Assembly (NCBI GenBank): GCA_965217775.1 | Contig: CBDCJH010000002.1 | Coordinates: 4,800,001 to 4,864,000, forward strand | Origin: Acidobacteriota bacterium | GTDB lineage: Bacteria; Acidobacteriota; UBA6911; RPQK01; JAJDTT01 | Direction of reading: 5' to 3' | Length of the DNA: 64,000 nucleotides | Shown: positions 10,110 to 37,019 of the stretch, in pieces | How the letters are laid out: each line of letters starts with the position of its first letter | How positions within the stretch are numbered: position 1 is the stretch's first letter | Position numbers and translations under genes: made by a program | The notes under the pieces: model-generated | Told to the model about the DNA's origin: nothing | The model's input: the letters and a program-made list of their open reading frames with translations, nothing else | The model's database searches: none

Positions 10110-11447
10110 ATGAAGGGTAGCCGGTTCCGAGTGGCCATCGTCGGACGGCCCAACGTGGGAAAGTCCACTCTCTTCAATCGTCTGACGCGGACCCGCCGTG
10201 CTCTGGTGGACCGTCAACCGGGAATGACCCGGGACCGGATCTGCGGGATGGCCAAGTGGGACGGCCGCAGTTTCGAAGTCATGGACACGGGCGGCATCAC
10301 GCCCGGTGACCGGGAACACATTCCCGAGCAGGTTCTCCGCCAGGTGGAGATCGCCATCCGGGAGGCGGACCTCATCCTCCTGGTGGTGGACGTTCGAGAC
10401 GGCCTCCATCCCCTCGACCAGAGTCTGTGCGCCATGCTCAGGGCACGAGGCAGTGAGCCCCTGTTGGTGGTCAACAAGGTGGAGACTCTCCGCATGGAGA
10501 CGGAGGCGCTCCAGTTCCATGCTCTGGGCCTGAGGCATCTGTTCCCGGTTTCCGCCGAGCACAATCTGCAATTGACGCCTCTGATCGAGGAGATTCTGAG
10601 CCGATTCCCCGAAGCCGTTTCGGGCGCTCCCGAAGCCGAAGAGATCCGGGTCGCCATCGTGGGACGCCCCAATGTGGGCAAGTCCTCTCTGCTGAACCGA
10701 ATCGTGGGAGAAGAACGCTCCATTGTGACCTCCATCCCCGGAACGACTCGGGATGCCGTGGACACGCTGGTTCAAGTGGCGGATCAACGGTACCGATTCG
10801 TCGACACTGCGGGAATTCGAAGAAAGAGCAAGACGGTGGAGGTTGCCGAGAAGCTGAGCGTGATCATGGCTCGCAAGAACCTGGAGCGGGCCGACGTGGC
10901 GCTGCTGGTGCTGGATGCCTCCGACCCCCCCGGCACTCTCGACACAATCATCGGCAGATACGCCCAGGACGCGGGCGCCTCCATTCTGATTACGGCCAAC
11001 AAGTCCGACCTGATGCCGTCCGATGCGGAAACTCGGGCGGCCATGGCCGCAGCCTATCGGGACCGGATGCGGGCCCTGGTTTTCGCGCCCCTGTTCTTCG
11101 TGTCGGCGAAGACGGGAAGCGGCGTCTCCAGGATCTTCGCCCAGGTGGACGGAGCCTACGAGGGCCGGATGATCCGGGTCGTGACCTCCGAATTGAACGT
11201 CTACCTGGAACGGCATGTGGCCACGGCCCTGGCTCCGGAGGGCAGCGGCAGAAAGTCGCGCTTGAAGTACGCCTGTCAAGTGGCGACGGCTCCTCCCACC
11301 TTCGTCTTTTTCACTCGGGGGTCGAAAAAGCTGGATCTTCCCACCCGGCGGTATCTGGCCCGCCGACTCCGGGAGAAATACCATTTTCACGCCACGCCGA
11401 TCCGGATCCTGCAACGTTCCGGGAGGAGGAGAGAGGAGCTATCTTGA
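10110..11447 (+). CDS. der: ribosome biogenesis GTPase Der (EngA)
   Basis: two GRPNVGKS P-loops, DTGG and DTAG G3 motifs, C-terminal PPTF KH-like domain. Confidence 0.96.
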   Translation: MKGSRFRVAIVGRPNVGKSTLFNRLTRTRRALVDRQPGMTRDRICGMAKWDGRSFEVMDTGGITPGDREHIPEQVLRQVEIAIREADLILLVVDVRDGLHPLDQSLCAMLRARGSEPLLVVNKVETLRMETEALQFHALGLRHLFPVSAEHNLQLTPLIEEILSRFPEAVSGAPEAEEIRVAIVGRPNVGKSSLLNRIVGEERSIVTSIPGTTRDAVDTLVQVADQRYRFVDTAGIRRKSKTVEVAEKLSVIMARKNLERADVALLVLDASDPPGTLDTIIGRYAQDAGASILITANKSDLMPSDAETRAAMAAAYRDRMRALVFAPLFFVSAKTGSGVSRIFAQVDGAYEGRMIRVVTSELNVYLERHVATALAPEGSGRKSRLKYACQVATAPPTFVFFTRGSKKLDLPTRRYLARRLREKYHFHATPIRILQRSGRRREELS

Positions 11448-11513: not shown

Positions 11514-11780
11514 ATGGTCAAAGCGGATCTGGCTCGTTCGGTCTATGAGGCCCACGGCGGTTTGACTCATCAAGAGTCGAAAGAGATGGTCAAGCTCATC
11601 CTCGACAGCATCAAATCCGAGTTGCTCCGTGGAGAAAATGTGAAGTTGTCCGGTTTCGGGTCGTTCCGCGTGATTTCATTGAAGGCTCGACGCGGTCGCA
11701 ATCCCCAAACCCGAGCCCAGATGCAGCTTGGGCCAAGTCGACGCGTGACATTTCGCCCTTCACGCCTGATCAACGTGTGA
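11514..11780 (+). CDS. integration host factor/HU family DNA-binding protein (IhfA-like)
   Basis: [25 protein letters not shown]; ihfA-merR-tRNA-Pro context. Confidence 0.92.
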
Positions 11781-11790
11781 CTCCATCCTG

Positions 11791-12213
11791 ATGGCCCGAA
11801 AAGGGAAGCTCTTTTACAAGATCGGGGAAGTCTGCAAAATCTGCGACGTTCCCGCTCACGTCCTGCGTTACTGGGAGACCGAATTCCCGCCGCTGGCCCC
11901 CAACAAGAACCGCTCCGGACAACGCATCTTTCGGGAGAAAGACGTGCAACTGGTGGCCGAGATCAAGCGGCTTCTGTACGAAGAGGGATACACCATCGCC
12001 GGAGCCCGCAAGCAGCTCCGCCGAAACGGTGCAAACTTGCGGGCGACGCTCCTGTTTGCCGGACCCGATGGCAACTCTCCCAAGAAACTTCTGACCCAGA
12101 TCCGGGGTGAACTTCAGGACCTGATGAAACTTCTGGACCAGAATCTCGAAACCTCCCACTCGCGGGCGGCGAATCGGGCCCAGCCCACCGGCAACGACGA
12201 GAACGGCGGTTAA
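11791..12213 (+). CDS. MerR family transcriptional regulator
   Basis: [31 protein letters not shown]. Confidence 0.93.
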
Positions 12214-12291: not shown

Positions 12292-12300
12292 TGTTATACT
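12292..12300 (+). promoter_or_regulatory. extended -10 element for tRNA-Pro
   Basis: TGTTATACT (TGn-TATACT) ending 17 bp before the tRNA. Confidence 0.5.
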
Positions 12301-12317
12301 GGCCATCTTCCACCGGT

Positions 12318-12394
12318 CGGGACGTGGCGCAGTCTGGTAGCGCACCTGAATGGGGTTCAGGGGGTCGGGAGTTCGAATCTCCCCGTCCCGACCA
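12318..12394 (+). tRNA. tRNA-Pro(GGG)
   Basis: CGGGACGTGGCGCAGTCTGG..CCTGA-ATGGGGT-TCAGG..GTTCGAATC..CCCGACCA. Confidence 0.97.
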
Positions 12395-12482
12395 GCATTT
12401 TAGGAGTCATCTCGAGCGGCGGCCCGCGAGTTGCACGGGTTGTCCCCGTCACGGCTCCGATCCTCCGGGTTGGAGGAGCTAG

Positions 12483-14882
12483 ATGCCTTCCGGAGTCCGG
12501 GCCCCTGAATCACCTTCTGATAGTTCGACCGCGTCCCGCCAACGGCCGGAAACGGAATCGCTCTCCCCGGAGATCCCAACCCGTCTGACGTCCGCTCGCC
12601 GATCCTTCCTTTCGCGCCTGCTTGCGGGAACTTCACTCTGGGTCCTGGGAGGTGGCGCCCGAGCGATCCGGAAGGCCGGCGCGACGACTCCCGCCTCCGA
12701 TAACGACGAAGATGTCTTTGCCTACATCGCACGTTCGAAAGGACGATTCGACCCGGCGCTCTACCGGCAAATGCTCGGCTCCGCCAACGATTTCAAGGAA
12801 GGAGACCACGCCGTCGGCGTGGCTGCACTCGACGACCGGTCGCGAGCCCAAGCCCGTGCCCTGCTGGCAAACACGCGCATCGGTGACCTGATCGATCACC
12901 CGGTCTTCGAAGACTCGGTTTCGTCGTACATCGGCAAGGTCGTTGAGCGTGAGATCACCCGATCCCTCGCCGGCTGGACGCTGGCCGATCTGAAACGCTT
13001 CCTGCTCGAGAACGAAGAAGACGCCATCAAGGGCATCATGCCCGGTCTGCCCAGCGACATCATCGGCTGCGTCGTCAAGCTGATGAGCAACGAGGAACTG
13101 ATCAAAGTCGGGCAAAAGGTCTTCAATCCGCTGCCCCACTCCAACCTCGGCGCCAAAGGGTACATGGGCGCCCGCATTCAACCGAATTCGCCCACGGACA
13201 ACGTCGACGACATCCGATGGCAGGTCTTCGACGGGTGGTCCTACGCCGTCGGAGACGTCGTGCTGGGAACCAACCCGGTCTCCAGCGAGGTCGCTTCGGT
13301 CGCCTCCATTCAAGACGCCCTGGCCGAAATCCTGCAGGTGTTCGGCCTGGAAGACGCCTTGCCCCATTGCGTGCTCTCCCATGTCGACGTACAGGCCGCG
13401 GTTGAACGCCAGGACGCCGGATCGACGGCGATCTGGTTCCAGAGCCTCGGCGGCGTCGCGGACGCCAATACGACCTTCGATCTTTCGGTCGAGAAAATGG
13501 TGTCCCACGCCGAGCGGCGGACCGGAAAGTACGGTTTCTACTTTGAGACGGGACAAGGCGCCGATGCCACCAACGGTCACGGCAAGGGCTTCGACATGGT
13601 CATCCACGAGGCGCGCAAATACGGGTTCGCCCGGGCCCTGGTGCACGAGGTGGCCAAGGCGCAACGCGACGCCGGGCGCAGACCGGCGCCTTGGGTGCAT
13701 CTGAACGACGTGGCCGGATTCATCGGGCCGGAGATCTTCCGGACGCGCGAGCAGCTCGTTCGCTGCTGCCTGGAGGACACGGTCATGGGCAAGCTTCACG
13801 GTCTTCCCATCGGCCTCGACATCTGCTCGACGCTGCACATGGACATCGACCTGGACGACCTCAACTGGTGCATCGAGCAGGTGATGCCGGCGAATCCGGC
13901 CTATCTGATGGCGCTGCCGACCAAGAACGACCCCATGTTGAGCTACCTGACCACGGGGTTCCTGGATCACGTCCGGGTCCGCGAGAAATTCGGGTTCAAA
14001 GTCAACGACGTGATGTGGCGTTTCTTTCAGTCCCTGAAGGTGATCGACTCGAAGGGCAGGCCCACGGAGCATTTCGGCCGGCCGACGTGGGTCTATCTTC
14101 AGTATCTGCGGGCCAAGGGCGACCAGCGCCCGGACCGGGAGATCCTGGCCGAGGGCAGGCGCCGGATCGCGGAGATCCGGGAACGCGGCGTGTTCATCTC
14201 GGAGGGGCACGGGAAGAACACGTGGGAGCTGGAGCCTCGGCTCCGGAAGAAAATCCGGTATCTCTACCAGGATTCCAAGGAGTGTATCCGGGCCGAACTG
14301 CCGAAAGACTTCGAGAGCCGGCTTCCCTCGGCGATCATGGTGGGAAGCCGGTCCAGGGACCGCGACGACTACATCCTGCATCCCCCCACCGGAGAGGAAT
14401 TGGATGCCGCCTCGACGTCGATCATTCGCCGTCTCGCCAAAGACCGCGGCGACCGCTACGACGTGCAACTGGTCATCTCCGACGGCTTGAACGTCTACTC
14501 GCTCACCGATGACGGCCACTTGAATCCCTACCTGACGGCTCTTCGCGCCCGCCTCGAAGCCGCAGGCCATGAGGTGGCGCCCGAGCACATCGTGGTGCGG
14601 AACGGGCGGGTTCGCGCGGGATACCGTATCGGCGAGATGCTCTTCGGGAATCTACAGGGGCCGGACCGCAGACGCGCGATCCTGCACGTTATCGGCGAGA
14701 GGCCCGGATCGGGACATCACGCCTTCTCCGTCTACATGACCCGTTCACCGGTCCGCACCTGGGTCCAGGCCGGTGTCACCGACCACAACGTCACCAAAGT
14801 GGTTTCCGGAATTGCGGACACGGCATTGGACCCGGTGACGGCGGCCGCAAACACCGTGAGGATCCTGTCACGGACAGCGTAG
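12483..14882 (+). CDS. eutB: fused ethanolamine ammonia-lyase EutB-EutC with putative Tat signal (start uncertain)
   Basis: EutB motifs RIQPNSPTD, GTNPV, YFETGQG, GFIGPE, LEDTVMGKL; EutC motifs VISDGL, GRV, IGERPG; N-terminal ARRSFL followed by a hydrophobic stretch. Confidence 0.9.
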   Translation: MPSGVRAPESPSDSSTASRQRPETESLSPEIPTRLTSARRSFLSRLLAGTSLWVLGGGARAIRKAGATTPASDNDEDVFAYIARSKGRFDPALYRQMLGSANDFKEGDHAVGVAALDDRSRAQARALLANTRIGDLIDHPVFEDSVSSYIGKVVEREITRSLAGWTLADLKRFLLENEEDAIKGIMPGLPSDIIGCVVKLMSNEELIKVGQKVFNPLPHSNLGAKGYMGARIQPNSPTDNVDDIRWQVFDGWSYAVGDVVLGTNPVSSEVASVASIQDALAEILQVFGLEDALPHCVLSHVDVQAAVERQDAGSTAIWFQSLGGVADANTTFDLSVEKMVSHAERRTGKYGFYFETGQGADATNGHGKGFDMVIHEARKYGFARALVHEVAKAQRDAGRRPAPWVHLNDVAGFIGPEIFRTREQLVRCCLEDTVMGKLHGLPIGLDICSTLHMDIDLDDLNWCIEQVMPANPAYLMALPTKNDPMLSYLTTGFLDHVRVREKFGFKVNDVMWRFFQSLKVIDSKGRPTEHFGRPTWVYLQYLRAKGDQRPDREILAEGRRRIAEIRERGVFISEGHGKNTWELEPRLRKKIRYLYQDSKECIRAELPKDFESRLPSAIMVGSRSRDRDDYILHPPTGEELDAASTSIIRRLAKDRGDRYDVQLVISDGLNVYSLTDDGHLNPYLTALRARLEAAGHEVAPEHIVVRNGRVRAGYRIGEMLFGNLQGPDRRRAILHVIGERPGSGHHAFSVYMTRSPVRTWVQAGVTDHNVTKVVSGIADTALDPVTAAANTVRILSRTA

Positions 14883-14903: not shown

Positions 14904-15818
14904 TCAACTTCGCAGCCGAAGCATCCGAGCCCCGTTGTCGTAGGTGATCCGCCTCAACATCAGGGGATCGGGAAGATACTTCTTCAGCACGTCCAACGAA
15001 CGCTGGGCGATACAGTAACCGCGCGGGTAGGTCGCTCCCTTGCCGTCGTGGCAGTAGCAGTCGCTCCCCCAGAGCAGCTTGCGCGAGTGCCGGGCGACGA
15101 AATCGGCGGCGAAGCCGGGATCCCGGCTGAGGGAGTTGAGTCCCGACCCGGCCGAGAGGTCCCCGAACATGTTGGGGTAGTCGGCCAGGAGCTTGTCGCT
15201 GAGGCCTCCCTTGACGACCCGGCCCTCTCCCCTGCCGTCCCGGCTGATGTTGGCCCACCAGGTTCCCGCATGGCCCAGAAAATTCACCTGCGGATACCGC
15301 TCCAGAATTTTGTGAAACCGGTCCAGGCCGTGGTTGTGCCGGGAGCCGAAATGAAGCAGGACGGGGACTCCGTATTCCCGGGCCACTTCGTAGACCCTGC
15401 GCATGGGAGCGGAGTCGGCGTCCACTTCGAACTTCTGCTCGCCGATGCCCAGAGCTCCTTTCTCCAACTGCTGGCGCAGGGCTTGGACCGCGTCTTCCCG
15501 CTCCGGATCCACGTTGCAGAACGTGACCACCTCTTCCGGATACTTGCGGACGTGACTCCAGGCCGCTTCGTTTCCGCTGATCCTCCCATTCATCCAGCCG
15601 TCTCCCGGGAGCAGGACCGTGGTCCTGACCCGGTGGAACCTCTGGTGCCGCATCAGCGTCTCGGCCGGCCGCCGGTCGAAGTCCGGGTGCTGGTGAATGT
15701 CAAGGATGGGCAGGGGCACGGCAGCCTCGGCCCCAGTGCCGGAAGCGGCCAGCAGCGGGAGACCCAGACCGGCCCCTCCGGCCCGGCGCAACAGCTCCCG
15801 GCGATCGATCCGCATCAT
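14904..15818 (-). CDS. Tat-exported amidohydrolase_2 family protein
   Basis: DRRELL signal, LDIHQH, GIGEQK, PVLLH, FLGHA, DLSA, LLWGSD; 3' part of ORF 14904..17249. Confidence 0.9.
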   Translation of the reverse strand: MMRIDRRELLRRAGGAGLGLPLLAASGTGAEAAVPLPILDIHQHPDFDRRPAETLMRHQRFHRVRTTVLLPGDGWMNGRISGNEAAWSHVRKYPEEVVTFCNVDPEREDAVQALRQQLEKGALGIGEQKFEVDADSAPMRRVYEVAREYGVPVLLHFGSRHNHGLDRFHKILERYPQVNFLGHAGTWWANISRDGRGEGRVVKGGLSDKLLADYPNMFGDLSAGSGLNSLSRDPGFAADFVARHSRKLLWGSDCYCHDGKGATYPRGYCIAQRSLDVLKKYLPDPLMLRRITYDNGARMLRLRS

Positions 15819-17383
15819 GGCGCCTGCTCTTGCCAGCCCAGACCGAAGACCCGCTCTTCTCCCGGATCGTAGAGGCAGGTCACCACGAAGAGATCCTCTA
15901 TGCGGGATCGCTCCGGTGGAATGTTGACCTGGACGTAGGTGAAACCCCGGGCGACCCAGCTGACGTAACCCTCCCGGGGAGAGACCGGCGCCGGGTGTCC
16001 GTTGACTCGAAGTTCGGAGATGCGAGCCTTGGGGTAGGGGATCCGAAGGCGCAGCGAGAGCCCGTTTTCGATCGGCCCGCTCTCCGCCTCCGGCGGGAGC
16101 TCGGATCCGTCGGCGCGGCCCGATAGCAAAAGCAGATGCGCCTTGAATTGGCCGTCCGCATCGGGATGGTCCTTCAGTGCCAACCGGATGGGACCGGCTT
16201 CGATGCTCCTGTGCTCTTCGATTCGCTGGGCGAACCGGGGGAGACTCTTGTCCGAGAGCCAGCGGCGGGCCGCACTGCCGGTGGTGGAGCAGACGAAGAG
16301 AACCATTCCCTCGGTCTGAGGATTGTTGAGTGCGGTGACGATCTGTCCCTGCTTGTTCCAGAGCTCCACCCGGGACCGGCGGCGGGCGGCGGCCGTCTCC
16401 CCATAGGCGGTGACGAAGTGGAGCTCGTTCTTGAGGATGACCCGCGTGGGGTAGCCGGGATAGTACTCCCCGGGCCAGATCTCCCGGCCGATCTCCAGCA
16501 GGCGGCGATGACGCAGGAAGCTGCTCCGTTCCCAAGCATTCTCGTTGGCGAAGGCCAGAGTGTGGTAATGCTCGTAGCCGTAGGTGGCCGCATAGTAGAG
16601 GGGCCTTCCGCTCCACAACTTGGGTCCCAGCTCCTCGAGCTCCGGGCCCCAGTAGATCCGTTCCGCATCCTGCTCCAACTCGTCGGAAGGATAGCCCTCC
16701 GCCAGCGCGGCCTGGTCCATCTGCCGGATGATCTCGTGCTTGTACGACTTCAGGGAGATGTTGGAGTAGGCCGCACCCGAGTTCTCGGCCATGATGTAAC
16801 CGCGAAACTGCATGCCGGTCCCGTGGTAGTCGGCATGGAGCTCCGCCTGGAGTTCGTCCATGAGACTCTTTGCCGCCAAGGCTTCCGGCATCTGTTCCGG
16901 GTACAGGGGTCCCTCCCGGTTCCATTCCTTGTAGGTATCCCGATTGTGGCTGTTGCGCAGGCTTCCGGCCACATAGCCGTCCGGGTTGACCACGGGCATG
17001 AAGGCGATCACCTGCCCCCGGAGAATCTCTCGAGCTCCCGGACTCCCCTTGAGCAGCCAGTCCATGAGATAGAAGATCCCGGTGGCGGCCGAACGCTCTC
17101 CACCGCAATGGAGCGCCGTGATCAGGACATGCTCCTTCTGCTCGGCAGGGGCGTCGGGATCGGTCAGGACGGCCGCCAGCAGCGGCCGGCTCTGGGCCGT
17201 GGTCCCCAGCCTCCGGAGCTTCATGATCCTGGGATAGGCCTTCTCCCATTCCAGCAGCCGGTTCTCGAGTTGGGACAAGGTGGGATGGACGGCCGGACCG
17301 AATTTGGGGCCTGACGGAGCGGCACCAAACGCCGAAAGACCGTAAAGCAGAGCTGCCAGAACCAGACCGGCGGTTTTCTTCAT
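15815..17383 (-). CDS. exported M14-like zinc carboxypeptidase family protein
   Basis: signal MKKTAGLVLAALL; G.T..SRPL, ITALHCGGE, PVVNPDG, ADYHG. Confidence 0.8.
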   Translation of the reverse strand: MKKTAGLVLAALLYGLSAFGAAPSGPKFGPAVHPTLSQLENRLLEWEKAYPRIMKLRRLGTTAQSRPLLAAVLTDPDAPAEQKEHVLITALHCGGERSAATGIFYLMDWLLKGSPGAREILRGQVIAFMPVVNPDGYVAGSLRNSHNRDTYKEWNREGPLYPEQMPEALAAKSLMDELQAELHADYHGTGMQFRGYIMAENSGAAYSNISLKSYKHEIIRQMDQAALAEGYPSDELEQDAERIYWGPELEELGPKLWSGRPLYYAATYGYEHYHTLAFANENAWERSSFLRHRRLLEIGREIWPGEYYPGYPTRVILKNELHFVTAYGETAAARRRSRVELWNKQGQIVTALNNPQTEGMVLFVCSTTGSAARRWLSDKSLPRFAQRIEEHRSIEAGPIRLALKDHPDADGQFKAHLLLLSGRADGSELPPEAESGPIENGLSLRLRIPYPKARISELRVNGHPAPVSPREGYVSWVARGFTYVQVNIPPERSRIEDLFVVTCLYDPGEERVFGLGWQEQAP

Positions 17384-17439
17384 TCTCCCCATTCTCCGCC
17401 GGAATCCACAGGAATCAGCCCGGTCGAGGGCGGACGGGG

Positions 17440-18162
17440 TCATGGACCCGGCCCTGCTTCCTCGGCGACGGCTTTCCGCCCCGTCCGTGAACCGCTCGCC
17501 ATGAACTCCAGAATCGGACCCATGGGTTGGAGACCGGCCACCGCCAGATCCGGATCGTGGGATCTCAGTTCATCGAGTCCATAGTTGCCGGTGGCGACCG
17601 CAATGGTGATCGCGCCCGCGGCGCGGCCGTGCCGGATGTCCCGGGGCGTATCGCCGATGACGAACACTTCGTCGGGAACCAGCGGAGCCGCCAATTCGCT
17701 GCCGCGGCGGATGGCTGTTCGGATCAGCTCCGTTCGATCGCCGGAGTCGGAGCCGTATCCGCCGAAGGGGAAGTAGGAGCTGAGCCCGGCCCTTTCCAGC
17801 TTCAATCGCGCCCCGGTCTCGACGTTCCCGGTGGCCAGTCCGATCAGGAAATCCGGATCCGCCGAAAGCCGGACCACCAGTTCTCGTGCCCCGGCCAGGA
17901 CTTGGAAGTTGGGGCTCCGGCGGATCTCGTCCGGCAAGATGGACAGATAGATGTCGTAGAGCTCCTGTCCGGGTTCATCGTCCAAATCATATTCGGAGAT
18001 GAGTTCCTGAATGATGAGTGGATCGGTTTTTCCGTCGAACCGAATCGAAGTCGAATCGGGCTCGATCCCATACCGAATTTGGAAGGCACGATGCAAGGAC
18101 CGGGTGCCGGCCCCTCCGGATAAGAGTAGGGTGCCGTCGATGTCGAAGAGGACCAGCCTCAT
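17440..18162 (-). CDS. HAD family hydrolase
   Basis: LFDIDGTLL, LATGN, IGDTPRD. Confidence 0.93.
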   Translation of the reverse strand: MRLVLFDIDGTLLLSGGAGTRSLHRAFQIRYGIEPDSTSIRFDGKTDPLIIQELISEYDLDDEPGQELYDIYLSILPDEIRRSPNFQVLAGARELVVRLSADPDFLIGLATGNVETGARLKLERAGLSSYFPFGGYGSDSGDRTELIRTAIRRGSELAAPLVPDEVFVIGDTPRDIRHGRAAGAITIAVATGNYGLDELRSHDPDLAVAGLQPMGPILEFMASGSRTGRKAVAEEAGPGP

Positions 18163-26826: not shown

Positions 26827-28155
26827 TCAGGCCCCTCCGGGAATCGCCCAGTGGCCCTTCCGGTAGCTGCGGGCGAGCAGGGCGTCCGCTTCTTCGTCGC
26901 CCGAGATCCGCTCCACCGCCGGATCGAAGTGGAAGGACCGGCCCACCCTCACGCCGATGTTTGCCAGGTGACAGAGGGAGGTGGACAGGTGCGCCGTTTC
27001 GGCATCGGCCGTGAGACCGGTCTGGCCTCGAATCGCTTTCACCCAGGTGAGGAAGTTACTCGTCATGTCCATTTTCGGAAGAACACTTGGCTGCTTTTCG
27101 AGACGCTTGTTCTCCCCGTCCCAAAGTTGGAACCGCCCCCGGCGGCTGAAGAGCATCTTCCCCCCGGTCCCCAGAAACTCGACGCCGCCGTCCACGTCGT
27201 AGGGATGGTTGGCGGACCAGATCCTCATCTCGAAGACCAACTGCCTGCGCTCCCCGACGCTTCCCTTGCCCGGATAGTCGAAGGTTGCTGTGACGGTGTC
27301 GGGGAACTCCTGGTCGTCGTCGAAGAAGAACTTGCCGCCGGCCACGGCCACCTGGCTGGGATGGACGTCGAGTCCCAGACCCCAGCGGGCCATGTCGAAC
27401 TCGTGGACGCCGTCGTTTCCCAGATCGCCGGTGCCGAAGTCGTACCACCAGTGCCAGGAATAATGGTGCCGGTTCTTCTGGAACGGGACCATGGGAGCCG
27501 GCCCCAACCAGAGGTCGTAGTCGAACCCGTCCGGCGGGGAACCGGGCCGCTCGCGGCCGATGTTGCGCCGCTTCTGGACGTTCCAGGCCTTGGCCACGAG
27601 CACGTCGCCGATGACGCCCTCGTGCAACATTTGCACCGCCTCGACGAACCCCCGGCTGCTGCGGGCCTGGGTCCCGTGCTGAAGGACGCGGCCGGACCGC
27701 CGGGCGGCCTCGACCAAAAGGCGGCCTTCGCGGAGATTGTGGGAGCACGGCTTCTCCAGGTAGACGTGCTTGCCGGCGTCCAACGCCAGGATCGCCGCCG
27801 GAGTATGCCAGTGGTCGGGGGTCGCAATGGTCACCGCGTCGACGGTGGGATCGTCGAGAATTCTCCGCAGATCGTCGACGGGTTGGGCGCCACCGGCCTC
27901 GCCGGAGGCCTGGGCACACCGGTTCTCGTCCGGGTCGCAGACGTAGGCGATCTCGGTGTTGACCCCCTGGGGGAACCGGCCGATGTGGGAGCGCCGGCCC
28001 TGGCCTCCGCAACCGATGACCGCAAAGCGGATGCGGTCGTTGGCGCCGGCCGCCCGGGCCGGGACCGAACTCAGAACCGGGGATGACGCAGCGACAGCGG
28101 CCGCAGCCCCGGACCCCTTCAAGAATTCCCGCCGGTTGACTCCAACTCTTGTCAT
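26827..28155 (-). CDS. Tat-exported Gfo/Idh/MocA oxidoreductase
   Basis: NRREFLK signal, IGCGGQG, ATPDHWH, GKHVYLEKP, GNDGVH. Confidence 0.94.
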   Translation of the reverse strand: MTRVGVNRREFLKGSGAAAAVAASSPVLSSVPARAAGANDRIRFAVIGCGGQGRRSHIGRFPQGVNTEIAYVCDPDENRCAQASGEAGGAQPVDDLRRILDDPTVDAVTIATPDHWHTPAAILALDAGKHVYLEKPCSHNLREGRLLVEAARRSGRVLQHGTQARSSRGFVEAVQMLHEGVIGDVLVAKAWNVQKRRNIGRERPGSPPDGFDYDLWLGPAPMVPFQKNRHHYSWHWWYDFGTGDLGNDGVHEFDMARWGLGLDVHPSQVAVAGGKFFFDDDQEFPDTVTATFDYPGKGSVGERRQLVFEMRIWSANHPYDVDGGVEFLGTGGKMLFSRRGRFQLWDGENKRLEKQPSVLPKMDMTSNFLTWVKAIRGQTGLTADAETAHLSTSLCHLANIGVRVGRSFHFDPAVERISGDEEADALLARSYRKGHWAIPGGA

Positions 28156-28440
28156 TGTGCCTCCTTTTGCCGCGCCAGCGGCCCAGCGCGGAATCCGTAG
28201 CGACTCAGCGAACACTCGCGTTTGTTCTCCTACTCTACACCCTGGGCGAAACGTTGCCACGGCCGGCATCGGCGAGGAGCGGACCACTTTTGCTCAGGTC
28301 ATGTCGCAGACGGGAGGCCCGTTTCTTACAATTAAATTAATGAATCTATAGTCAGCTACACCCAGCCGGAGAGAGGGCAACATCGTCAAGAACTTCGGTC
28401 CAGCATGTCTGCCGATTTCGCCAAAGGAGGTGGACGGTCG

Positions 28441-29398
28441 ATGATCCCGGAACAACCACACCGCGAGCACCAACTCAAACCCTTCGGTTGGACGGGCCGC
28501 GAGGCCGAGTGGATCGCATTGGTCTGCCGTCATAGCGACCTGTTCACCCACTCCCAGTTCTGCACCTACTTGCACGCGCGGCCCAACCGGGCGCGCCAGT
28601 TCGTCCGCTGCTTGCGGAATCGCCGCCAAGCGGTCGAAGTCAACCTGGACGGCCTCCCAGCCGCCGCGCGACCCTGCCGGATCTCCGGCAAAGCCATCTA
28701 CCAAGCACTGGGCATCGAGAACGTGGGCCACCGCTGCACCGCCTCCGCTCCCGTCCTGATGCGGCGGCTGCTGTCACTCGACCTACATCCTGGAGCACCC
28801 GCAGCAGTCGTGGCTTACCTCGGAACAGGAAAAAGTCGCCGCCTTCGATGACTTCGACATTCCCCGTCAGGCCCTCCCCCGTCGTTACTACACCGGAAAC
28901 AAGGCGGTCTGGATCCGTTACTTTGCCCTGGAGCTCCCCCTATCCATCGGGCCCGAGACCGTCACCTTCGTCTACGTGGACCCGGGCTACGACACCGACC
29001 GGAACCTGATGGCCTGGGGATCGAGCCACGCGCCGCTCTGGCGGGCCCTGCGCCGGAAGGGACGCCGGATCCGGGTCGTCGCTGTCGCGCGTGACGAAAC
29101 CCAGTTGGGACGGGCCAACGAGGTCCTGAACCGCTGGACTGAAGGGCACTGGCCGAAGGGCTGCCAGCCGCTCACGTCCGACGAAGAGGAGGAGATAGAA
29201 GAGATTCGTCTGGCGTTCTTTCGGAGTGACTGGACTGCGCTGGAGCGTTGGGGCGGGCCCCAATCGGCCCTTTTCTATCAACGCGACCTGAAGCGCCGAC
29301 CGGCGTTCGAGGGTTCCGAATGCGGATTCCGGATTGACCGAGCGGACACATGGCGCTCGCAGAGGTTGTCGTTCTCTTCTGGAGCAACCCTCCAATAA
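28441..29398 (+). pseudogene. frameshifted hypothetical gene of a type likely carried on mobile elements
   Basis: strong RBS AAGGAGG; ..RRLLSLD continues as YILEHP..EQEKV..RYFALELP..FVYVDPG if one base is removed near 28784, joining ORFs 28405..28851 and 28976..29398. Confidence 0.7.
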
Positions 29399-29477
29399 CC
29401 CGCTTCGCAGTAGTGATTTCCCAGGGTCAGACCAATCTGGCTGGCTCCCAAGCACGCGGTCAGACTGCGCCTCCTTG

Positions 29478-29717
29478 CCCGCATTTCTCACCAGGCCGCT
29501 ACGCGTATGATGAAAAATAATCTGTTTTTGAGCATTTACGCGGATTTTTCCAAGGTTTCTCCGGGACAGACTGCGCTGGGCGCGCGCTCGCTGGTCTTTT
29601 CGCCCTCAGCGCGCACATGCTCCCTCAAACGTAGTTACCACTACGCTCTCGGTCGCGAGCACGCGCTGAGGGCGAAAATCCTGCGCGATCGTCACGCCCC
29701 CTGGTGAGAAATGCGGG
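29478..29717. mobile_element. MITE-like element family A, long copy
   Basis: same 18-bp TIR as 2655-2791, homologous interior, plus about 100 bp internal hairpin. Confidence 0.85.
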
Positions 29718-34663: not shown

Positions 34664-34867
34664 TCATAGCTCAGAATCCTTGATCTGAGCCATCTTCATC
34701 AGATGCCTCTGCAAACCACGTTTCAGAGTGCCGCCGTGTACCGGGACCGAGATACGAGCGGGAATCCCCATCTTCACGTAGATGTGGTGGCTGCCTCTGA
34801 CTCGTTTCAACTGCCAACCTCGCGACTCGAGCAACCGGCAAAATCGCTTGCCGCTGACGGCCTTCAC
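34664..34867 (-). CDS. hicA: HicA family toxin (mRNA interferase)
   Basis: LESRGW..RVRGSHHIY..ISVPVHG..LKRGL; GTG start overlaps the hicB stop. Confidence 0.92.
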   Translation of the reverse strand: MKAVSGKRFCRLLESRGWQLKRVRGSHHIYVKMGIPARISVPVHGGTLKRGLQRHLMKMAQIKDSEL

Positions 34868-35067
34868 ACGGCAATCTCGATGATTTTGTCTGTCTCGGAG
34901 ACAGGAATATCCTGGATCTCGACAGATAGACACCCCTCGACGGCTTCATAGAGATTACCTAGCAGATCTTCAAACGAGTCTCCCTGAGTCGCACACCCTG
35001 GGATGGACGGCACTTCCGCCCAGTACCCGCCCTCATCTGCTTCATGGATCACGACTTTCAGCTTCAT
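34864..35067 (-). CDS. hicB: short HicB family antitoxin (no DNA-binding domain)
   Basis: AAGGAGG RBS; EGGYWAEVPSIPGCATQGDS.E....N..EA. Confidence 0.93.
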   Translation of the reverse strand: MKLKVVIHEADEGGYWAEVPSIPGCATQGDSFEDLLGNLYEAVEGCLSVEIQDIPVSETDKIIEIAV

Positions 35068-35285
35068 GGTTCCTCCTTGTATTCCGCACCAGCTCACTGT
35101 CAGTCTAGTTTATCTTCCCGCCGGTAAGTACCACAGCTTTGGAAGTTCATCCCGGATCCCGGACCAAGACGTAATCCGCATCCCGGTGGAGGATCTCGGG
35201 TGCCCCGCATAGACCGGCGGAGACTCTCTCGGAGCGGAGCATCTCTTTTGTGGTCTTTCTCCGGGCATTCCCGCAGGGATATTTG

Positions 35286-35410
35286 GGACGGGAGCGACCC
35301 TCCCATGGAGTGCTGCTCAGATGTAAGTTGCGCAGCACTGCCGTGCCGATCATGGAGGCGAAAAAGGGGTTCGCTCCCGTCCAGCTCCGCTCTCCCCCGA
35401 TCGGCACGGC
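35286..35410. other. candidate structured non-coding element (two interleaved 12-bp inverted repeats plus an 8-bp hairpin)
   Basis: 35286-35297 pairs with 35371-35382; 35340-35351 pairs with 35399-35410; 35309-35316 pairs with 35332-35339. Confidence 0.55.
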
Positions 35411-35575
35411 GGGGCCATTCTCACTCCCCTCCAATGGCCTCCCCTTCCGTGTGTCGGCGGCGGGGAACGATAAGCACACTTCAATCAGGGAACCGATCCC
35501 CCACAAGAGATGAGGGGCTGAATTCCTCGTACGCTGTGGCCTTCCGCTGGTCATTCCGCCGAAAAAGGAGAATCC

Positions 35576-36577
35576 CTACAGGAAGTCCGACGCGCAGGGG
35601 TAACCGGGAAGCGGTTGGGCCTGGAGGACGGCCCGGACCACGGCCCGGGCGGTGACTTGGGCCGCCAGAGCCCCGACCAAACCCAGGTCCTGTCCTTGAA
35701 CCGACTCGGCGGAAAGGGCGAACAGGGTATCCCCGTCCGCCGGCATGTGGACGGGACGGATGGTCCGGGCCAGTCCGTCGTGGGCCATCTGGGCGATCTT
35801 GGTCAGGCCCGCCTTGTCGAACTCGGCGTTGGTGGCGATGACGCCCAGGGTCGTGTTCTCACCCTCGCCCCGGCCCCGTGCCGGCAGTCCCCGTTCCCTC
35901 AGGACCGTCATGGTGTCGGCGAAGCCTCGCCCGCCCGCGCCGCGGACCCCCGCCAGGATCCTGCCGGTCTCCGGATCGATGACGTCGCCCACGGCATTGA
36001 CCGCTACCAGGGCCGCCACCACCAGGGGTCCGGCCCGGACGGCCGCCGAACCCAGGCCACCTTTCATGGCGCGTTCGTGACCCAGAATCTTGCCCACGGT
36101 GGCTCCGGCTCCCACGCCGGCGTTGCCCTCGGCGACCGGCCCGGTCCCGGCGTTTCGGCAGGCCCGGCGTCCCAATTCGGGACCCGGGCGGATCGAGGCG
36201 TCTCCCAGCGCCAGGTCGAAGAGAATGGCCGACGGCACGATGGGGACCCGGGCCACCAGCGTCTCGTATCCCACCCCACGCTCCTCCAGGTAACGGACCA
36301 CCCCGGAGGCCGCGTCCAGACCGAAGGCGCTGCCGCCGGAGAGCACCAGGGCGTGGATGCGTTTCACCGAGCGCACCGGATCCAGCAGGGCGGTTTCACG
36401 AGTGCCGGGAGCGGAGCCGCGAATGTCCACTCCGGCCATCATTTCCCGTTCCGGCAGGACGACGGTGACTCCCGTAGGCCGCCGGGGATCGACGGCATGG
36501 CCGACTCGTATGCCTTCGACATCCGTCAGGCCGCCCTCATAGCCGACAGACCCTGATGGATGCGTATCGCTGCTCAT
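35576..36577 (-). CDS. P1/S58 family peptidase (DmpA-like)
   Basis: LTDVEGIRVGH, APGTRET, LSGGSAFGL, GNAGVGAGA, ENTTLGVIAT, DGDTLF. Confidence 0.94.
   Translation of the reverse strand: MSSDTHPSGSVGYEGGLTDVEGIRVGHAVDPRRPTGVTVVLPEREMMAGVDIRGSAPGTRETALLDPVRSVKRIHALVLSGGSAFGLDAASGVVRYLEERGVGYETLVARVPIVPSAILFDLALGDASIRPGPELGRRACRNAGTGPVAEGNAGVGAGATVGKILGHERAMKGGLGSAAVRAGPLVVAALVAVNAVGDVIDPETGRILAGVRGAGGRGFADTMTVLRERGLPARGRGEGENTTLGVIATNAEFDKAGLTKIAQMAHDGLARTIRPVHMPADGDTLFALSAESVQGQDLGLVGALAAQVTARAVVRAVLQAQPLPGYPCASDFL

Positions 36578-36600: not shown

Positions 36601-37019
<419 letters not shown>

Follow-up and report, generated by a model that had tools for sequence, protein, structure and literature searches.

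The 64,000-nucleotide (nt) stretch of an Acidobacteriota genome analyzed here, referred to as the window, harbors on its forward strand a gene that encodes both parts of ethanolamine ammonia-lyase (EAL), EutB and EutC, as a single 799-residue chain instead of the two separate subunits of the alpha6beta6 enzyme. EAL is a textbook enzyme of the cytoplasm or of microcompartments, and the field assumes that its cofactor adenosylcobalamin (AdoCbl) is supplied in the cytoplasm, that reactivation is driven by ATP, and that a shell contains the acetaldehyde formed. The chain in the window begins with a predicted twin-arginine translocation (Tat) signal peptide. To judge by its relatives, this enzyme, known so far only from inside the cell, probably has its site of action in the periplasm, both in this genome and in hundreds of further species of bacteria.

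Architecture of the single-chain lyase

The first-pass annotation of this locus described a 799-codon open reading frame (ORF) with a complete EutB-like domain followed by EutC motifs, and the exact coordinates, the Pfam domains, and the presence of every named motif agree with that description (Table 1). In residue numbering, the motifs lie at 38 (ARRSFL), 59 (ARA), 230 (ARIQPN), 262 (GTNP), 354 (FETGQG), 411 (AGFIG), 444 (GLDIC), 486 (LSY), 664 (VISDGL), 708 (GRVRAG), and 737 (IGERPG). The annotation also considered that the true start might lie downstream of the twin arginines (RR). Reading the frame directly shows that codon 1 is followed by no further in-frame ATG, GTG, or TTG before M97. 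Since M97 is already within the EutB domain, for which the NCBIfam match opens at residue 83, the RR motif must belong to the protein.

Domain profiles match both halves, the EutC half less firmly. The EutB half scores 583 bits against NCBIfam NF011649, above the cut-off of 554, and the EutC half scores 104.5 bits against Pfam PF05985, above the cut-off of 25.8, but stays below the cut-off of its NCBIfam equivalog (see below). Among PDB sequences, the EutB half matches 2qez_A from Listeria (5.4e-64) and 3abo_A from E. coli (1.6e-59), and the C-terminal half matches the EutC chains of E. coli at 2.7e-10 to 4.3e-10. An AlphaFold2 model built from a 25-sequence alignment has a predicted local distance difference test (pLDDT) value of 84 and a predicted template modeling (pTM) score of 0.82, with only residues 1–64 disordered (pLDDT <50). 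Compared by Foldseek with E. coli EAL, as the first-pass annotation had proposed, the model matches EutB (3abo_A) with a template modeling (TM) score of 0.88 and a root-mean-square deviation of 2.2, and the EutC chains 5ysr_D, 7xrm_B, and 3abo_D with TM scores of 0.71–0.74; diol and glycerol dehydratases rank far lower than the EAL chains. The linker between the domains, in which the model places helices at residues 534–544, 551–567, and 585–603, stands in for the N-terminal part of a free-standing EutC, the profiles of which match the lyase only from position 46 of 235 (Pfam) or 54 of 261 (NCBIfam).

The substrate site appears intact. The E. coli EutB residues R160, Q162, N193, E287, D362, and M392 and their neighbors, which we take to be the substrate-site residues from a list that reportedly goes back to Shibata et al. 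2010, can be placed in the alignment throughout. R160, Q162, N193, E287, and F329 of E. coli align to R231, Q233, N264, E355, and F413 of the lyase, and D362, M392, and L402/Y404 align to D446, M476, and L486/Y488. All of these lyase residues are identical in 241/241 relatives, apart from M476, which is kept in 238/241, so that the conservation of substrate-binding motifs first noted by eye extends across the family alignment. For R160 alone, importance is indicated by the title of a work cited in PMC10440813. In the EutC domain, D667, R709, E739, and R740 are retained in 239 or 240 of the 241 relatives. Relative to E. coli EutB, the lyase contains an insertion of ∼15 residues (about 386–402), and extra cysteines are conserved in the family at C428/C429, within RCCLED, and at C463.

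Table 1. Features of the lyase gene and of its neighbors, in window positions
Feature	Position (nt)	Strand	Residues	Basis or remark
Whole gene: precursor of single-chain EutB-EutC ethanolamine ammonia-lyase	12483..14882, stop codon included	+	799 codons	ORF, Pfam and NCBIfam
Shine-Dalgarno-like GGAGGAG	12472..12478	+		Read directly; ends 4 nt ahead of the ATG
Predicted Tat signal peptide	12483..12665	+	1-61	Sequence features and conservation in relatives
N-terminal part of the mature protein	12666..12764	+	62-94	Family-conserved EDxFxYIxRxxGxFD; alignment consensus
EutB large-subunit TIM-barrel domain	12765..14069	+	95-529	Pfam PF06751, E 1.4e-134
Inter-domain linker	14070..14294	+	530-604 (75 residues)	Mostly helical in the model; conserved within the family
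EutC small-subunit domain	14295..14873	+	605-797	Pfam PF05985, E 7.3e-30; contains VISDGL, GRVRAG, IGERPG
Der GTPase	10110-11447	+		Upstream neighbor
HU	11514-11780	+		Upstream neighbor
MerR	11791-12213	+		Upstream neighbor
tRNA-Pro	12318-12394	+		88 nt upstream of the lyase gene
Amidohydrolase (Amidohydro_2)	14904-15818	-	304 aa	Downstream, convergent
M14 peptidase (carboxypeptidase)	15815-17443	-		Downstream
HAD hydrolase	17440-18162	-		Downstream

Predicted export signals in the lyase and its relatives

Ahead of EutB, residues 38–61 hold the elements listed in the first-pass annotation, namely ARRSFL, a hydrophobic stretch, and an ARA site. The layout consists of a long n-region (residues 1–38), the sequence A-R-R-S-F-L-S at 38–44 with RR (39–40) encoded at nt 12597-12602, a weakly hydrophobic h-region from L46 to A59 with glycines near its end (GGGA; LLAGTSLWVLGGGA), and a c-region in which the basic R60 is flanked by A59 and A61. 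Cleavage is predicted between A61 and I62, and the A-R-A of the window protein with its following I-R-K aligns with the A-V-A and following I-R-D of the Syntrophotalea carbinolica protein. The leader reaches a best 19-residue hydropathy of 1.03, and 118/120 Sec-type relatives (Sec, general secretory) reach 1.6 or more. The Tat review PMC7317946 gives as signal traits a motif of the S/T-R-R-x-F-L-K type where the n-region meets the h-region, a weakly hydrophobic core, helix breakers, a basic c-region, and A-x-A, and residues 1–61 show these traits with an RR-x-F-L motif. A profile search of the genome detects one copy of TatC (215.5 bits).

The signal call relies on our own rule, an RR pair together with an uncharged hydrophobic core, and on conservation. 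The homologue sample comprises the best 120 of 3583 proteins, 119 of which have both the EutB and the EutC domain. By this loose rule 102/120 homologues fit, against 50/120 by a strict rule (RR.[FL][LIVMA]), which undercounts because of RRR runs. The loose rule is fitted by 382/3975 ORFs of at least 150 aa in the lyase's own genome (9.6%), the strict rule by 112/3975 (2.8%), and the loose rule by 0/20 signal-less or canonical representatives; the frequency of an RR pair with a hydrophobic N-terminus in the top homologues, as read from these sequences, exceeds chance. As a separate observation on leaders of this kind, the lyase's own genome (G000) is rich in them, many reading ...RRDFL... or ...RREFL... 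and followed ∼40–50 residues on by PHF.P[KR]A[KR] and FLFM.GG.SQ.D; other RR-leader proteins of G000 run into seemingly dinucleotide-binding N-termini.

With the query included, R39 is an arginine in 107/121 sequences and R40 in 109/121, 11 of the remainder being N-terminal gaps, and F42 is kept in 93/121. The 103 sequences that satisfy the loose rule include 56 that also have a lipobox-like cysteine. The 18 that miss it consist of three with RR and a shorter core, six that start inside the core, and nine without a visible signal; at least two of these nine (P0027 and P0056) are truncated gene calls, as the loci L010/L012 and L045 hold an in-frame upstream RR signal. The concern that homologues might lack signal peptides is thus not borne out, with RR signals, RR or RK signals followed by a lipoprotein cysteine, and Sec-type signals all present.

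Relatives are encoded in at least 550 species-representative genomes. The best 80 loci carry the labels of Acidobacteriota, Myxococcota (Archangium, Vitiosangium, Nannocystis), Planctomycetota, Bacteroidota (Echinicola, Algoriphagus, Saonia, and others), Desulfuromonadales, and a few more. Eight of these loci are missed by the anchor pattern and two are cut by contig ends, leaving 70 readable loci under at least six phylum-level labels, of which 64 have a basic pair with a hydrophobic N-terminus (31 RR and 33 RK/KR). The pair is RR in Acidobacteriota (10/11 readable loci fit the rule), Myxococcota (8/8), Planctomycetota (7/8), and a metagenome-assembled genome (MAG) of Melioribacteraceae labeled ‘Ignavi’ (1/1). 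In Bacteroidota (34/38) it is RR in five loci and RK/KR in 29, typically S-R-K-x-F-L followed by a cysteine; the loci labeled Limnohabitans (2/2) have RK, and in Desulfuromonadales (2/2) a KR pair precedes a very hydrophobic core. Among the six loci that miss the rule, five still have an R-R or R-K-x-F motif by eye, and in L020 and L079 the rule took an upstream RR although the true motif is visible in the sequence. TatC is present in five out of five other carrier genomes tested, including all four from Bacteroidota (L038, L052, L064, and L060).

A second search, seeded from Desulfuromonadaceae, reveals a strongly hydrophobic Sec-type N-terminus in 118/120 Desulfuromonadales-type relatives and RRxF in none; this set includes the protein of Syntrophotalea (Pelobacter) carbinolica DSM 2380 (P0290). 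The copy on the Sinorhizobium meliloti megaplasmid pSymA (locus tag U8C44_07295 in CP140920.1) is 53% identical to the window protein, has a T-R-R-D-L-L signal, and is annotated simply as eutB, consistent with databases that annotate the family proteins only as EutB. By sequence comparison, one enzyme clade bears three kinds of export signal, and such a clade is hard to explain unless the enzyme acts outside the cytoplasm. Given the Sec-type signals of Desulfuromonadales and the mostly R-K signals of Bacteroidota, the family is not bound to Tat export of a folded protein with its cofactor in place. Three MAG contigs labeled ‘uncultured Limnohabitans sp.’ (L075, L078, and L080) contain Bacteroidota-type lyase copies, with RK leaders in L075 and L080; the neighbors of L075 are Pirin and a radical-SAM protein, as in the Algoriphagus loci L052 and L066, and the Limnohabitans-labeled bins may be mislabeled or mixed.

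The order in which fusion and signal arose can be approached with a quick IQ-TREE tree of 52 rows, which carries Shimodaira–Hasegawa-like approximate likelihood-ratio (SH-aLRT) support only and has several long branches and several rows of odd composition. Every signal-bearing form falls in one clade (support 99), and signal-less fused EutB-EutC forms are its successive outgroups. The signal-less fused proteins (P0142, 707 aa; P0148, 693 aa; P0210; P0213; P0218; P0220; P0234; P0260) share the fusion order of the window lyase but have no N-terminal extension, are 29–40% identical to it, and lie outside the signal-bearing clade. With such outgroups, the fusion seems older than the export signal, and the earlier proposal that a fused chain would allow one signal to carry both subunits is disfavored. 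Four eukaryote-looking, signal-less fused proteins (P0123, P0124, P0128, and P0130) are nested inside the export-signal clade, and in P0124 (1110 aa) two C2 domains precede EutB-EutC. These copies may reflect bacteria-to-eukaryote transfer with loss of the signal.

Proposed periplasmic deamination and competing explanations

A periplasmic AdoCbl-type eliminase, as proposed in the first-pass annotation, appears to be the best reading of the comparative evidence, which comprises signal conservation, three kinds of signal, a start codon that cannot lie beyond the RR, TatC, and an invariant substrate site. It is likely, though well short of certain, that the lyase is a Tat-exported single-chain AdoCbl-dependent EAL that takes up its cofactor in the cytoplasm and, once in the periplasm, deaminates ethanolamine without a shell, a permease, or a reactivase. 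The chain would fold in the cytoplasm and bind AdoCbl supplied by the PduO-type adenosyltransferase of the genome (195 bits). The TatC-containing translocase would move the folded lyase across the inner membrane, and signal peptidase I would cut after the A-R-A. In the periplasm, ethanolamine, or a close vicinal amino alcohol, would be converted to acetaldehyde and ammonia, with turnover proceeding in the absence of a microcompartment, the EutA reactivase, and an ethanolamine permease. The likely purpose would be the harvest of nitrogen from the breakdown products of lipid head groups. That export serves to keep acetaldehyde out of the cytoplasm is doubtful, because acetaldehyde crosses membranes.

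For the clade of AdoCbl radical lyases as a whole, which spans the species genomes counted above (Acidobacteriota, Myxococcota, Planctomycetota, Bacteroidota, Desulfuromonadales, rhizobia, and others), we lean slightly towards work outside the cytoplasm. RR forms would carry coenzyme B12 inside the folded enzyme through the Tat pore, and Sec-type forms, perhaps also RK forms, would acquire B12 in the periplasm. The radical chemistry of B12 would then take place where ATP, a reactivase, and a microcompartment are all lacking. The likely use across the clade would be the stripping of nitrogen from ethanolamine set free from the membrane lipids of prey, hosts, or dead cells.

Several observations weigh against a Tat-exported, periplasmic EAL. 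Mechanism-based inactivation affects AdoCbl eliminases, and EutA, the known reactivase, depends on ATP, which is absent from the periplasm; the genome holds no real EutA, only a partial match of 28 bits. The alpha6beta6 organization of canonical EAL bears on how a single chain would assemble and in which state it would pass Tat. The EutC half reaches only 77.6 bits against the NCBIfam equivalog NF003971, the cut-off of which is 230. Seven of the 121 top homologues show no recognizable signal, even after the truncated gene calls are set aside. In Bacteroidota (loci L024–L084), R-K replaces R-R in most copies, 29 of the 34 fitting the rule, and is followed by a lipobox-like cysteine; lysine substitution in RR is poorly tolerated according to PMC7317946. 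Such RK and Sec variants weaken the step of cofactor loading before export, not the extracytoplasmic location. Among 31 related genomes, the lyase gene occurs in nine including its own, six of eight others of the same genus, and none of six from the sister genus, which makes it accessory in this lineage. In two genomes of the same genus, the lyase is split over two overlapping frames on one contig (residues 1–656 and 651–799 in G008, and 1–295 and 293–799 in G011), reflecting either decay into a frameshifted pseudogene or a sequencing indel error. Lastly, the architecture, the intact substrate site, the RR inside the protein, and the clade-wide export signal are read directly from sequence, and export, cofactor loading and content, cleavage, and catalytic activity are what we infer from it.

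Support from transcription is a weak hint. Contigs that are 90–95% alike cover the 5′ end of the lyase gene, including the part that encodes the signal, in four out of four RNA-library runs from two studies (for example, record 6 of X17 at 12338-13996 and record 17 of X19 at 12300-12720). These contigs come from relatives and may contain DNA, and the comparison is made without a silent control stretch; uncovered parts of the lyase in runs X19 and X20 carry no meaning. Two of the four runs are recorded as sponge metagenome. No sequencing run holds half or more of the words of the window, and the shares say nothing on habitat.

Other explanations differ from the Tat-exported EAL in location or in role. 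The lyase could be a cytoplasmic EAL, or one associated with the inner face of the membrane, in which the RR leader is unused for export and persists as a relic, tether, or regulatory segment. The exterior of the cell provides neither ATP nor a reactivase, RR pairs with hydrophobic N-termini are not rare in the genome (the loose rule takes in 9.6% of ORFs, the strict rule 2.8%), and characterized EALs are, as far as known, all cytoplasmic or within a microcompartment (PMC5821096). This explanation is nevertheless improbable. R39, R40, and F42 are kept across phyla, which is not expected of a relic, and a relic would not give way to lipoprotein-type or Sec-type signals elsewhere in the clade; in addition, an N-in, C-out topology is predicted from the basic n-regions, and none of the 20 signal-less or canonical representatives fits the RR rule. 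An annotation artefact, with a true start downstream or a frame that is not a real gene, is barely credible. The 38-residue n-region is unusually long and of low complexity, but it is retained in relatives that are 87–92% identical, and the frame has no alternative start between M1 and M97, is preceded by GGAGGAG, shows a third-position GC content (GC3) of 0.805, and in homologue searches is matched over its full length.

If the protein is exported, its role or its final state may still differ from soluble ethanolamine deamination. A role with another vicinal amino alcohol, or mainly in extracellular corrinoid binding, would be in keeping with the features found only in this family (the insertion at 386–402 and the cysteines C428/C429 and C463) and with the lack of a conserved partner gene that points to a pathway; the authors of PMC3543383, in the part available, also wondered whether one of two S. 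carbinolica copies acts on choline. We regard such a role as unlikely, as the invariant residues aligned to the E. coli substrate site (241/241, and 238/241 for M476) argue for the same small substrate and for catalysis over mere binding, and the NCBIfam EutB score lies above its cut-off. Very unlikely is an exported enzyme whose uncleaved signal holds it on the outer side of the inner membrane. The clade of the window protein has lost the lipobox cysteine present in 56/121 relatives and yet retains the hydrophobic core, the A-R-A cleavage site is a pattern match only, and the lipoprotein forms of Myxococcota, Planctomycetota, and Bacteroidota suggest membrane attachment as the usual state. 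On the other side, A59-R60-A61 is a standard A-x-A site that aligns with the A-V-A of the Sec-type S. carbinolica signal.

A Tat-exported lyase would depart from known systems in several respects. The canonical EutB and EutC of E. coli, Salmonella, and Listeria (3ABO, 5YSR, and 2QEZ) have the same domains, folds, and aligned substrate-site residues, whereas the window lyase is ∼31% identical to them, is one chain and not the product of two genes, and has an N-terminal export signal, an insertion, and extra cysteines. In contrast with the canonical Eut metabolosome, its genome has no eut operon, real EutA, EutH, or shell proteins. The S. carbinolica protein P0290 belongs to the same clade and has the same architecture, with 58% identity over residues 39–795, but its leader is Sec-type and strongly hydrophobic without RR. 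The available part of PMC3543383 terms its gene ‘an unusual fusion’, reports no eutA in that genome, lists cobalamin synthesis genes, a periplasmic binding protein, and membrane proteins in the 43-gene cluster that holds the gene, unlike the lone gene of the window, and reports growth of S. carbinolica strains by splitting ethanolamine; its account of the fusion, to the same extent, makes no mention of a signal peptide or location. Reductive dehalogenases likewise bind a corrinoid, have a twin-arginine signal, and reside on the outer side of the cytoplasmic membrane, but their fold is unrelated, they contain iron-sulfur clusters, and their corrinoid serves reductive chemistry, not AdoCbl radical rearrangement (PMC10624902). 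By analogy, they are a precedent for the Tat export of a corrinoid enzyme.

The full-text literature searched, including that on S. meliloti pSymA, contains no report linking EAL to Tat, a signal peptide, or the periplasm, supplementary tables of Tat substrates (e.g. PMC3305326) being outside the search, and it describes no exported AdoCbl radical enzyme. If correct, the periplasmic reading would make the lyase the first extracytoplasmic AdoCbl-dependent enzyme and would add a new cofactor class to Tat cargo, and a widespread exported EAL would overturn the three assumptions on AdoCbl supply, reactivation, and the shell. It raises the questions of how AdoCbl is loaded and retained outside the cell, how the enzyme survives inactivation, where periplasmic ethanolamine comes from, and whether exported EAL explains the scavenging of ethanolamine and nitrogen in soil, marine, and host-associated bacteria without a eut operon. 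Cultured carriers, among them Sinorhizobium meliloti (pSymA), Echinicola, Algoriphagus, Archangium, and Syntrophotalea carbinolica, allow direct testing.

Genomic context and minor observations

The lyase gene stands alone, as first described: the neighbors listed in Table 1 include no eut, shell, permease, or aldehyde dehydrogenase gene. The genome, which is 97.9% complete, encodes exactly one EutB. Genome-wide, there is no match to the bacterial microcompartment shell family PF00936 and no EutH, and the best EutA candidate, the 28-bit match, is rejected as EutA as it covers 45 of 475 profile positions. No cobalamin riboswitch is detected in the 64-kb window, the only one in the genome lying ∼0.8 Mb away, and a promoter and terminator scan is uninformative for the lyase, its sole hit being a weak promoter-like site ahead of tRNA-Pro.

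Relatives' loci show no conserved synteny and give no evidence of an operon partner. Clustering of the 641 ORFs within six genes of the lyase, from the 71 of the best 80 loci in which the search pattern located it, yields a largest cluster found in 5/71, and a Pfam search of 131 immediate neighbors gives mixed families, none of them eut, shell, or aldehyde dehydrogenase. The neighbor families include PhoD-like phosphatase and M14 peptidase (two each), and an iron-containing alcohol dehydrogenase (Fe-ADH), an amino acid permease, and a solute-binding protein (one each). PhoD enzymes are classic Tat cargo and could free ethanolamine from phosphorylated head groups; a PhoD-like phosphatase adjoins the lyase in the Bacteroidota loci L027 and L031, and two loci are too few for an association.

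Convergent to the lyase lies a two-gene unit. Its first gene encodes the M14 carboxypeptidase, which has a Sec-type signal, MKKTAGLVLAALLYGLSAFGA, and the Amidohydro_2 gene overlaps the M14 stop and has a twin-arginine leader of its own, MMRIDRRELLRRAGGAGLGLPLLAAS...AEA. The 781-aa ORF at 14904-17249 extends the amidohydrolase frame too far. The Tat-signal amidohydrolase is rejected as a family-wide partner of the lyase, as tblastn places it next to the lyase in only three of 80 loci, those of the closest relatives (L005, L006, and L007).

Elsewhere in the window, an ordinary class A bacterial RNase P RNA is present at 36602-37014 on the reverse strand (291 bits). The N-termini of ORFs on the small contig C1 of the genome (for example, 34838-36559 and 28133-29503) are the same or nearly the same as those of C2 ORFs at 5260847-5262568 and 5267902-5269272. 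Part of C2 (∼5.26 Mb) may be nearly duplicated in C1, which could explain the contamination figure of 7.5%.

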